This document shows, piece after piece, positions 7,882-9,174 of a DNA stretch of 64,000 bases. The notes below the pieces were generated by a model that worked only from the letters and a program-made list of their open reading frames with translations, did no database searches and had not been told where the DNA came from. Position 1 is the stretch's first letter, and each line of letters starts with the position of its first letter. Location: positions 208,967-272,966 of the forward strand of contig DAIOHD010000001.1 of assembly GCA_036744835.1 (NCBI GenBank), given 5' to 3'. The position numbers were made by a program, and so were the translations under genes. The DNA comes from Candidatus Magasanikiibacteriota bacterium. Its GTDB lineage: Bacteria > Patescibacteriota > Patescibacteriia > Magasanikbacterales > GWA2-37-8.

Positions 7882-9174
7882 TTATTTATCCAATTCCTCA
7901 AGAGCATACTGGCGATACATATATGCAACCGGATTGGTTTGTGCCAGTATATTTAAACTGGATAAAATAGCATTTTTAGCAGAAAGTATAACTGCCATAG
8001 GAACATTTGAAGGAGTTTCAAGCGAACTCCAGACATCGTGAGGTTTTTCTTTGGCTGTAGCCGGAACAGCTATTACAGGCCAGGAAGTACGGGTAGCTAA
8101 AATCGGTCCGAGTCCATTACTCATGCCAACGACGGTGACAATTACTCCGCCCTCCGGAAATGAGCTTAAAATTTCTTCCAATTTGGCAAGGCAAGACGAA
8201 GGTGATTTATGTCCGGAGATAGTGATCTCTGTTTTTTCAATGCCGGCAATTTCTGGAATTTTAGGAAACTGGTCAGAAGGGGAACCGCGCCAAAGAACAA
8301 TGGTTTGTTTTGGAATATTAAATCTGTTTACCAGGTTGGCAACCACGGCATATTTATTGGCAATAGTTGCCATTTCTACATTATCTCTGAAAAGCTGTTT
8401 TGAAAGTTCTTCCCATTTATTTGTCCGTAATCTCCAGCTATCATTGTCTATAACATCAGAGACCAGAAGTTTCCCTTCCTGATTGATTCCAAATTCGATT
8501 TTGAAATCAATCAAACGACAACCGAGTTTTGTCCAAGCACTTTCCAAAACAAGAAAAGTTTTACGGGTAAGTTCTTCAATTTTTTCCACAGTTACGCCTT
8601 TTGGCAAGAAATCATTTTTGTTGAGTTCAATGCCGGTGTTAGCGGTTTTGATCCAACTGGGCTGTTTGGGTTCATACAATACCCATTTTTCTTCATAAGG
8701 ATTGACGATAAAAGGATCTTCAACCGTTGTTTCTCCGCGGTAGTTACCCTGCATGTCCACAATTTTTTTTCCAGTTGTTTTCAGGAACAGCTCAAAGACA
8801 AGTTTGTGAAAACGGTGAGGGGTTTCATTTTTCTGTTTTTCCAGATTGGGAAAACGCTTGAGATAACTCCCTACGGCATAACGCCGGATGATTACTTCAA
8901 GCGGAATCATTTTACATTCCGGTGCGATAAATTCTGTTTCTGAAATCTGTTTTTCAAAAGCGACCGAAATACCAGCTTCTTTCAAAAGAGAAAAGACTGC
9001 ACAAGTAGTGGTGGTGGCGTGGACTGCCTTGTTATCCATTACCTGTGTTTGTGAAGAATCGTCGTTTTTTGTGATATCATTTTTATTTTGAATGACCACA
9101 AATCCCGGTTTTTCTTCAATACGGAGGATTTTTTTTGTTTTTCCTTCCTTTAACAATAAATTTTCATCTGACAT
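7882..9174 (-). CDS. Bifunctional SAICAR synthetase / AIR carboxylase (PurC-PurE fusion, PAICS-like)
   Basis: N-terminal SAICAR synthetase blocks (LLKEGKTKK, FIAPECKMIPLEVIIRRYAVGSYLKR, LIDFKIEFG, VIDNDSWRL) and C-terminal PurE blocks (WRGSPSD, SGHKSP, VVGMSNGLGPILATRTSWPVIAVP, HDVWSSL), collinear with animal PAICS. Confidence 0.8.
   Translation of the reverse strand: MSDENLLLKEGKTKKILRIEEKPGFVVIQNKNDITKNDDSSQTQVMDNKAVHATTTTCAVFSLLKEAGISVAFEKQISETEFIAPECKMIPLEVIIRRYAVGSYLKRFPNLEKQKNETPHRFHKLVFELFLKTTGKKIVDMQGNYRGETTVEDPFIVNPYEEKWVLYEPKQPSWIKTANTGIELNKNDFLPKGVTVEKIEELTRKTFLVLESAWTKLGCRLIDFKIEFGINQEGKLLVSDVIDNDSWRLRTNKWEELSKQLFRDNVEMATIANKYAVVANLVNRFNIPKQTIVLWRGSPSDQFPKIPEIAGIEKTEITISGHKSPSSCLAKLEEILSSFPEGGVIVTVVGMSNGLGPILATRTSWPVIAVPATAKEKPHDVWSSLETPSNVPMAVILSAKNAILSSLNILAQTNPVAYMYRQYALEELDK

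Follow-up and report, generated by a model that had tools for sequence, protein, structure and literature searches.

A predicted PAICS-type PurC-PurE fusion enzyme of a candidate phyla radiation bacterium and its widespread prokaryotic family

In reviews and mechanistic papers (among them PMC10484210) the fusion of PurC to PurE is an animal feature, found in the bifunctional enzyme PAICS, with PurC and PurE being distinct proteins in 'lower organisms'. The canonical Escherichia coli system achieves the same net conversion of 5-aminoimidazole ribonucleotide (AIR) to succinylaminoimidazolecarboxamide ribonucleotide (SAICAR) with homologous PurC and PurE folds, but does so with three separate proteins, PurK, a class I PurE and PurC (b0522, b0523 and b2476), and at the expense of an extra ATP. 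A third described relative, the PurE of Treponema denticola (3RG8), is a class II enzyme consisting of a single domain. Here we analyze a gene, purCE, that encodes a PurC-PurE fusion in a bacterium of the candidate phyla radiation (CPR). The gene lies on a 64,000-nucleotide stretch of DNA (the window, to which all positions refer) from Candidatus Magasanikiibacteriota bacterium (assembly GCA_036744835.1, contig DAIOHD010000001.1, positions 208,967 to 272,966).

Comparison of purCE with animal PAICS and with free-standing PurC and PurE

The purCE gene (7882-9174, minus strand) is an intact ATG-to-stop open reading frame (ORF) of 430 residues, with the PurC half N-terminal and the PurE half C-terminal. 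This is the domain order of human PAICS as confirmed from PMC10484210, in which the human SAICAR synthetase comprises residues 7-261. The Pfam SAICAR_synt family matched in two stretches, the better of which covers residues 8-134 (E 1.9e-36), and the AIRC family matched residues 311-415 (E 2.3e-14). By use of phmmer, the best PDB matches spanning both halves were silkworm PAICS (4JA0, E 7.9e-55) and human PAICS (2H31, E 3.6e-50), whereas free-standing PurC proteins in the PDB reached only about 1e-19 against the 430-residue protein.

The likeness to animal PAICS is strongest in a few conserved blocks. The block FIAPECKMIPLEVIIRRYAVGSYLKR is identical to its human counterpart at 17 of 26 positions, VIDNDSWRL and DVWSSL are identical in human PAICS, and GMSNGLGP aligns with human GRSNGLGP. 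An initial annotation, made from the sequence alone, had quoted these blocks and proposed the metazoan domain order. The blocks are genuine and align to both human and silkworm PAICS, and the domain order is borne out by Pfam and by the PAICS alignments. Its description of the match to human PAICS as 'almost residue-for-residue' is fair for the quoted blocks (the 17/26 of the FIAPECK block) but not for the whole protein, which is 32 % identical to vertebrate PAICS over 389 aligned positions.

An AlphaFold2 model of the monomer, built on 22 diverse family members, had a mean predicted local distance difference test score (pLDDT) of 92.4 and a predicted template modelling score (pTM) of 0.91. 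Given this model, Foldseek placed human PAICS first (6YB8, 6yb8_A; E 6.6e-33, template modelling (TM) score 0.64/0.65) and silkworm PAICS (4ja0) second. PurC structures formed the third group (TM 0.85-0.90 normalised to the target), followed by the T. denticola class II PurE (TM 0.74-0.75, root-mean-square deviation 2.7 Å) and, fifth, class I PurE (TM 0.64-0.68). A C-terminal helix is present at residues 415-429 of the purCE protein.

The human active-site residues listed in PMC9376930 were mapped through the alignment. In the SAICAR synthetase half, the ATP loop G16-K17-T18-K19 of the human enzyme corresponds to G11-K14, the site residues T40, E97, K131 and D137 to T35, E93, K132 and D153, and the aspartate-binding residues K191, K228 and R232 to K225, K259 and R263. 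In the carboxylase half, the phosphate/ribose loop residues G273, S274, S276 and D277 correspond to G297, S298, S300 and D301, the 40s loop residues S301, H303 and K304 to S320, H322 and K323, and the 70s loop residues G330, S332, N333, G334 and L335 to G350, S352, N353, G354 and L355. Hence, the residues with side-chain roles at both human sites are kept except for Arg331, which is Met351, and A41-G42-N43, which is K-N-D. The GKTK loop is invariant in the 22 diverse members and in 118 close homologues.

Animal PAICS (2H31/6YB8 and 4JA0) and the window protein thus share domain order, the position of the linker helix, full-length homology (E 1e-50 to 1e-55), the catalytic residues of both sites and the motifs SxHK, SNGLGP and DVWSSL. 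They differ in that, besides the Met, the ITKNDD loop in place of ITAGNA and the low overall identity, the window protein has about 35-40 extra residues inserted in its PurC half, and the N-terminal part of its PurE and its C-terminal tail are shorter. The inserted residues widen the Lys132-Asp153 spacing to about 16 residues, compared with 5 in human PAICS; another insertion follows Pro154. AlphaFold2 modelled the insertions of residues 116-170 as extra beta strands with pLDDT >90. Moreover, the window gene comes from a bacterium, in which purB and purCE probably form an operon, and the animal proteins fall outside the prokaryotic clade.

To assign the PurE half to a class, it was aligned with class I sequences from E. 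coli and Methanocaldococcus jannaschii and class II sequences from T. denticola, silkworm and vertebrates. The 40s loop reads SGHK in the window protein, SAHK in human, Bombyx and T. denticola, and SAHR in E. coli and M. jannaschii; an Arg-to-Lys change in this loop from class I to class II is stated in PMC10484210. The 70s loop is GMSNGLGP, as compared with GRSNGLGP or GRSNALSG in class II and GGAAHLPG or GLAAHLPG in class I. The 100s motif is DVWSSL, which in class II is DVWSSL or, in T. denticola, DIYSSL and in class I is LYSIVQ or LLSSVQ. The loop after DVWSSL is the short class II form, and the class I insert (IGKAGAA in E. coli) is missing. Class II residues therefore occupy all three diagnostic sites, and neither SAHR nor AAHLPG is present, in agreement with the class II reading of the initial annotation. 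The T. denticola PurE, which shares the class II motifs (SAHK, GRSNAL and DIYSSL) and is the best free-standing structural match, differs in its 70s loop, which is SNALSG rather than the PAICS-like SNGLGP of the window protein.

In a neighbour-joining (NJ) distance tree of PurE halves (145 columns; short, partly partial sequences), the fused domains and T. denticola PurE separated from the E. coli and M. jannaschii class I enzymes with 96 % bootstrap support. Assignment by bit score was dropped, as the class I M. jannaschii enzyme scored above the class II T. denticola enzyme. Because bit scores fail to separate the classes, the class call rests on the motifs, the tree and the structural match, which together support a class II PurE half.

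Proposed function and purine gene neighbourhood

Given these data, purCE very probably encodes a working PAICS-type, CO2-dependent AIR carboxylase/SAICAR synthetase that feeds PurB and PurH. In the reaction sequence we propose, the C-terminal class II PurE would carboxylate AIR with CO2 directly to carboxyaminoimidazole ribonucleotide (CAIR), with His322 as the general base and with no need for ATP or PurK. The N-terminal SAICAR synthetase would then convert CAIR, ATP and aspartate to SAICAR, which PurB and PurH would take to inosine monophosphate (IMP), PurH drawing its 10-formyl-tetrahydrofolate (10-formyl-THF) from GlyA and FolD. PurA and PurB would make adenosine monophosphate (AMP). By analogy with PAICS, the protein would form an octamer with a PurE core and may channel CAIR between its sites; a supply of AIR is likewise presumed.

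The genes required for the steps after SAICAR are close at hand (Table 1). As the initial annotation had it, purB and purH lie directly upstream of purCE on the same strand. PurB catalyzes the next step after SAICAR and, of the two steps from IMP to AMP, also the second; purH scored 365 and 332 bits against its NCBIfam models, under the equivalog cutoffs. The purCE ATG is preceded by a Shine-Dalgarno sequence, AAAGGAG, at 9181-9187, 6 nt 5' of the start codon, and purCE appears from the sequence to be co-transcribed with purB. A hairpin between purH and purB and the TTGACA box after it suggest that purB-purCE has its own promoter, although this is a consensus match only. The purA gene is found about 9 kb past the right end of the window.

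Table 1 Positions of purCE, its predicted functional segments and the neighbouring and one-carbon genes in the window
Feature	Position	Strand	Basis
purCE, predicted bifunctional SAICAR synthetase / class II AIR carboxylase (PAICS-type)	7882..9174 incl. stop	-	ORF, Pfam, PDB matches, AlphaFold2 and Foldseek
SAICAR synthetase (PurC) half, residues 1-285	8320..9174	-	PAICS alignments; free-standing PurC alignments stop at about residue 285
AIR carboxylase (class II PurE) half, residues 286-430	7885..8319	-	Pfam, motifs, tree
GKTK, residues 11-14, SAICAR synthetase ATP-binding loop (human Gly16-Lys19)	9133..9144	-	Alignment to human residues
ITKNDD, residues 34-39, SAICAR synthetase substrate loop	9058-9075	-	Alignment
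Prokaryote-specific insertions of the PurC half, residues 116-170	8665..8829	-	Pairwise and multiple alignments
GSPSD, residues 297-301, PurE phosphate/ribose-binding loop (human G273-S-T-S-D277)	8272..8286	-	Alignment
SGHK, residues 320-323, 40s loop; catalytic His322, Lys323 class II marker	8206..8217	-	Alignment
GMSNGLGP, residues 350-357, 70s loop, class II form; Met351 = human Arg331	8104..8127	-	Alignment
DVWSSL, residues 380-385, class II form	8020..8037	-	Alignment
Bidirectional terminator-like hairpin between converging purCE and rplL	7835..7855	.	Consensus scan only
purB-purCE spacer, 15 nt, TTAAAGGAGTAAAAA	9175..9189	-	Direct reading
purB, adenylosuccinate lyase	9190..10494	-	TIGR00928, 401.8 bits (cutoff 326.2); Pfam Lyase_1 and ADSL_C
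Terminator-like hairpin between purH and purB, followed by TTGACA box	10650..10674	-	Consensus scan only
purH, AICAR formyltransferase / IMP cyclohydrolase	10700..12298	-	Pfam MGS and AICARFT_IMPCHas; E. coli PurH, E 7.5e-66
glyA, serine hydroxymethyltransferase, one-carbon supply for PurH	26771..28018	-	Pfam SHMT, E 2.9e-164
folD, methylene-THF dehydrogenase/cyclohydrolase, 10-formyl-THF for PurH	33658..34536	+	Pfam THF_DHG_CYH and THF_DHG_CYH_C

A set of E. coli K-12 proteins (PurK, PurT, PurE, PurM, PurN, PurF, PurD, PurH, PurL, PurC, PurA, GuaA and GuaB) was used to query by phmmer all six-frame ORFs of the window (224 ORFs) and of 86 related loci, each comprising the gene and as much as 10 kb of flanking DNA per side. 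With the gene calls of about 9.5 kb on each side of the window included, the stretch of this genome covered was about 83 kb. Only purH and purCE of the window were matched by the set. PurK and PurT, with best E values of 1.1 and 2.1, found nothing above noise in the window and had no matches in the 86 related loci, and no purK was among the gene calls in the flanks. The window thus lacks a recognizable homologue of the PurK of the E. coli system, as the initial annotation had stated. An Rfam search of the whole window at gathering thresholds detected no riboswitch, of the purine, ZTP or any other class, in the neighbourhood of the pur genes, the only matches being tRNAs, an L10 leader and one doubtful small RNA (sRNA) match.

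The relatives extend this picture. In a metagenome-assembled genome (MAG) of 36 % GC, locus L038, purCE belongs to a same-strand operon, purF-purN-purD::purM-purL-purQ-purCE (L038:1620-11263). In four other loci (L021, L023, L025 and L012) purCE adjoins a large purL and purM, and in L082 purA-guaB-purH-purM is found near purCE. As these relatives place purCE with early pur genes, the family, judged by gene content, clearly serves purine synthesis without PurK.

The L038 operon also contains an 842-residue ORF (L038:3864-6389, plus strand) in which PurD (residues 15-409) is fused to PurM (residues 562-826). This GART-like protein is a second animal-like fusion beside the PAICS-like one.

Several observations weigh against the function proposed for purCE. 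Met351 replaces human Arg331, a phosphate contact, and does likewise in most close relatives. The CAIR-binding loop is ITKNDD where animals have ITAGNA and E. coli PurC has TSAGDG, and the PurC half carries insertions missing from animal PAICS. The protein falls below the NCBIfam equivalog cutoffs both for purC (TIGR00081, 88.1 bits against 189.9, the match being split by the insertion) and for class I purE (TIGR01162, 52.9 bits against 149.6). The bit scores of the PurE half mix the classes, with the M. jannaschii class I enzyme at 31 and the T. denticola class II enzyme at 27; the AIR carboxylase domains of PAICS scored 44-52 bits. No paper on a prokaryotic PAICS-type member was found in the literature searched, which omits most subscription journals. 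Moreover, phmmer found no purF, purD, purN, purL or purM in the window, and none of these was called in the flanks of about 9.5 kb. Finally, de novo nucleotide synthesis is reported in a preprint to be absent from 93 % of the Patescibacteria genomes that it covered, so that a complete pathway is no more than a possibility in the genome of the window.

The last two points bear on physiological role rather than on the identity of the protein. The bacterium might have only the late pathway, in which purCE, purB, purH and purA would be fed by AIR, a riboside or a similar compound from a host, with the early purF-to-purM steps lacking and the chemistry of the enzyme unchanged. The missing early genes and the preprint, which finds the nucleotide synthesis genes scattered across the phylum, agree with such a role. 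However, several relatives have purCE beside purL and purM or in the full purF-to-purCE operon, one survey scored every step of de novo purine synthesis up to IMP as present in 32 % of the CPR genomes that it included, and the missing genes are missing from about 83 kb of genome. The survey and the preprint give conflicting pictures of how frequent the pathway is in CPR bacteria. We consider a late pathway alone to be rather unlikely.

A second alternative concerns the carboxylase chemistry. The PurE half could act as a class I-type mutase of N5-carboxyaminoimidazole ribonucleotide (N5-CAIR), the N5-CAIR being made by a PurK encoded elsewhere or formed spontaneously at high CO2. The absence of purK applies to the window and its flanks, and the bit scores alone leave the classes unseparated, both of which give this alternative some room. 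It is opposed by the three diagnostic motifs, all of class II type, by the class II clade at 96 % bootstrap, by the better structural match of T. denticola class II PurE than of class I PurE, and by the 86 related loci, in none of which a purK occurs within 10 kb of purCE. A mutase of this kind is therefore very unlikely.

It is equally hard to credit that only the SAICAR synthetase half is catalytic and that the PurE half is a decayed scaffold for oligomerization. In its favor, NCBI names the homologues only as SAICAR synthase, human Arg331 is Met in the window protein, and a few family members, such as P0264, have degenerate PurE motifs. Among the 118 close homologues, however, identity to the window protein is 62 % in the PurE half and 58 % in the PurC half, and conservation reaches at least 97 % at the catalytic residues, including Ser320, His322, Lys323, Gly350, Ser352 and Gly354. 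As conservation of the PurE half equals or slightly exceeds that of the PurC half, decay of the domain is argued against, and no second purE was found in the window. The direct carboxylation of AIR by a functional class II PurE half thus remains the reading we prefer.

The degenerate members themselves are P0264, P0176 and P0123. In P0264 (L007:3137-4420), SLDR takes the place of SxHK and GLGDTWGP that of GxSNGLGP, and there is no Pfam AIRC match. Such sequences suggest that the carboxylase has been lost in some lineages.

Breadth of the prokaryotic family and the position of animal PAICS

When one genome per GTDB species was scanned with the alignment of 22 members as the query, at least 554 relatives were confirmed, of which the best 80 loci were analyzed. 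Nearly all of these 80 match across both domains, and the shorter ones, such as L035, end at a contig edge. The CPR members among them come from Parcubacteria, Moraniibacteriota, Falkowbacteria, Peribacteria, Gracilibacteria and Paceibacterota, and from Taylor-, Vogel-, Staskawicz- and Giovannonibacteria. Members of about 40 % identity were found in Verrucomicrobiota (Chthoniobacter, Terrimicrobiaceae and Akkermansiaceae), in Xanthobacteraceae (Pseudolabrys, Rhodoplanes and Undibacter), and in Tepidisphaerales and Polyangiaceae. The GC contents of these non-CPR loci (57-68 %) argue that they are not mislabelled CPR contigs. One distant member lies in an archaeal-looking gene context. Several MAGs titled, for example, 'uncultured Gammaproteobacteria' (32-42 % GC, 45-58 % identity), among them that of L038, look mislabelled, and their titles were not used.

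A search of representatives of 50 %-identity clusters gave 1,629 matches at E <= 1e-3 and 306 at E <= 1e-30. Vertebrate PAICS proteins scored about 175-187 bits in this search and are roughly equidistant (31-36 % identity) from their 43 best-matching prokaryotic members. The prokaryotic fusions are about 33-73 % identical to the window protein. Several homologues are named phosphoribosylaminoimidazole carboxylase / phosphoribosylaminoimidazole-succinocarboxamide synthase by the Joint Genome Institute (JGI); NCBI calls them only SAICAR synthase.

The window protein, as judged by these comparisons, is an ordinary and well-conserved representative of a prokaryotic PAICS family that is widespread and under-annotated. 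The uncharacterised prokaryotic PurC-PurE fusions are its own family and differ from it in nothing essential; within them it belongs to a CPR subgroup (group A, 91 % bootstrap) having longer PurC insertions and ITKNDD. The description of the fusion in the initial annotation as a compact, eukaryote-like solution in a reduced genome was misleading, since the large, old prokaryotic family is also found in large, high-GC genomes and the animal proteins branch outside it.

The ITKNDD loop is specific to this CPR subgroup, the other prokaryotic fusions and the animals having ITAGDG or ITAGNA.

The Xanthobacteraceae, Verrucomicrobiota, Tepidisphaerales and Polyangiaceae set (L058:9917-11260 and also loci among L040-L087) consists of two-domain homologues of about 40 % identity in high-GC MAGs. 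The neighbours of the L058 gene (L058:4433-17492) are a UbiD decarboxylase, a Rieske/VanA oxygenase, MmgE/PrpD and 3-hydroxyacyl-CoA dehydrogenase, with no pur genes adjacent. With no pur genes beside it, the L058 gene could be a paralogue that serves a different function.

The same breadth disposes of the weakest alternative, that faulty assembly or a frameshift created the fusion or that animal PAICS was recently transferred into the metagenome bin. The initial annotation had named an artefact as a concern, but an identical protein is encoded on four independent contigs (one of them 0.2-1 Mb long), and the window itself matches positions 57,048-121,047 of the 150,844-bp contig ENA ERZ724101 NODE_32. 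In addition, a collection of 5.8 billion proteins holds 1,660 homologues with this architecture, identity to vertebrate PAICS is no more than 32 %, the animal sequences group apart from the prokaryotic fusions in a clade of their own (100 % bootstrap), and the gene has a bacterial Shine-Dalgarno sequence, an operon context and a GC content within the 32-40 % range of the window (2-kb windows), so that the probability of either event is negligible. The top 120 of these homologues are 52-73 % identical to the window protein, and nearly all have 405-476 residues and both Pfam domains, the exception being a 291-residue fragment on a 1-kb contig. Those that are named come from Moranbacteria, Falkowbacteria, Parcubacteria and 'Patescibacteria group'.

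The phylogeny of the fusion that the initial annotation had called for was inferred by NJ (414 columns, 200 bootstraps) with three animal sequences and with an artificial concatenate of E. coli PurC and PurE as the root. The animals (silkworm and two vertebrates) formed a clade at 100 % bootstrap and fell outside a clade of all prokaryotic fusions at 79 %. Within the latter, the CPR group that includes the window protein had 91 % support, and a second group, composed of other CPR sequences, the sequence of archaeal context, Verrucomicrobiota, Alphaproteobacteria and others, had 77 %. In a first tree, an unrooted/midpoint NJ tree, the vertebrates had been nested in the second prokaryotic group; they moved outside when the outgroup and bootstrapping were used.

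Two complete free-standing PurC proteins of the PAICS type, P0165 (L099:4906-5796) and P0190 (L100:2070-2951), are 41-51 % identical to the PurC half of the window protein and nest among the CPR fusions in a tree of PurC halves. No PurE was called downstream of either gene, in about 360 bp of contig for P0165 and about 200 bp for P0190. The nesting of free-standing PurC among CPR fusions implies that fusion or fission was repeated within prokaryotes.

These distance trees, with three animal sequences, exclude a recent animal-to-bacterium transfer, which is also ruled out by the 32 % identity. The fusion of PurC to a class II PurE might have arisen once, in prokaryotes, with animal PAICS being a branch acquired by early inter-domain transfer or retained from shared ancestry. 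The shared linker helix, domain order and class II motifs and the deep prokaryotic clade allow such an origin. On the other side, the animals are outside at only 79 % in an NJ tree with an artificial root and three animal sequences, and we regard a single prokaryotic origin as possible but doubtful. If it were true, the 10-step 'animal' route to purines, together with the purD::purM fusion as seen in L038, would have bacterial forerunners.

Bacterial fusions are already known in the sense that they are present in public databases, some of them annotated as bifunctional by JGI. A bacterial PurC-PurE fusion was not mentioned in the literature searched, the coverage of which excludes most subscription journals. 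The fusion is usually called animal-specific; the family is large and extends across several bacterial phyla. Annotation by way of NCBI names or NCBIfam equivalogs would list purE (and purK) among the absent genes and rate the purine synthesis of CPR bacteria as incomplete, whereas KEGG-style annotation, as at JGI, does recognize the PurC-PurE fusion. The argument for PurK and class I PurE as microbe-specific drug targets would fail for bacteria that use the fused enzyme. CAIR channelling could conveniently be studied in a small bacterial PAICS, and the prokaryotic family offers a route to the question of the origin of animal PAICS.

Other features of the window

Two ORFs of the minus strand outside the pur genes, one of 761 residues (37170-39455) and one of 121 residues (36685-37050), had no Pfam match at E <= 1e-3. 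The doubtful Rfam match is 'Rickettsia sRNA47' (59356-59659, minus strand; 68.3 bits against a gathering threshold of 60), which runs antisense in an S41 peptidase ORF (58534-59808, plus strand) and is probably conserved coding sequence that fits the model rather than an sRNA. The ribosomal protein L10 leader (6630-6772, plus strand) is upstream of rplJ-rplL. A tRNA gene (12689-12762, minus strand) lies between purH and a divergent amino-acid permease gene, and the interval between this tRNA and the purH start contains a strong hairpin (12424-12459) and a promoter-like site (12373-12402). Lastly, a 530-residue protein (28556-30148, minus strand) with Radical_SAM and Radical_SAM_C domains and a weak C-terminal match to GNAT acetyltransferases has an Elp3-like architecture, which is uncommon in bacteria.

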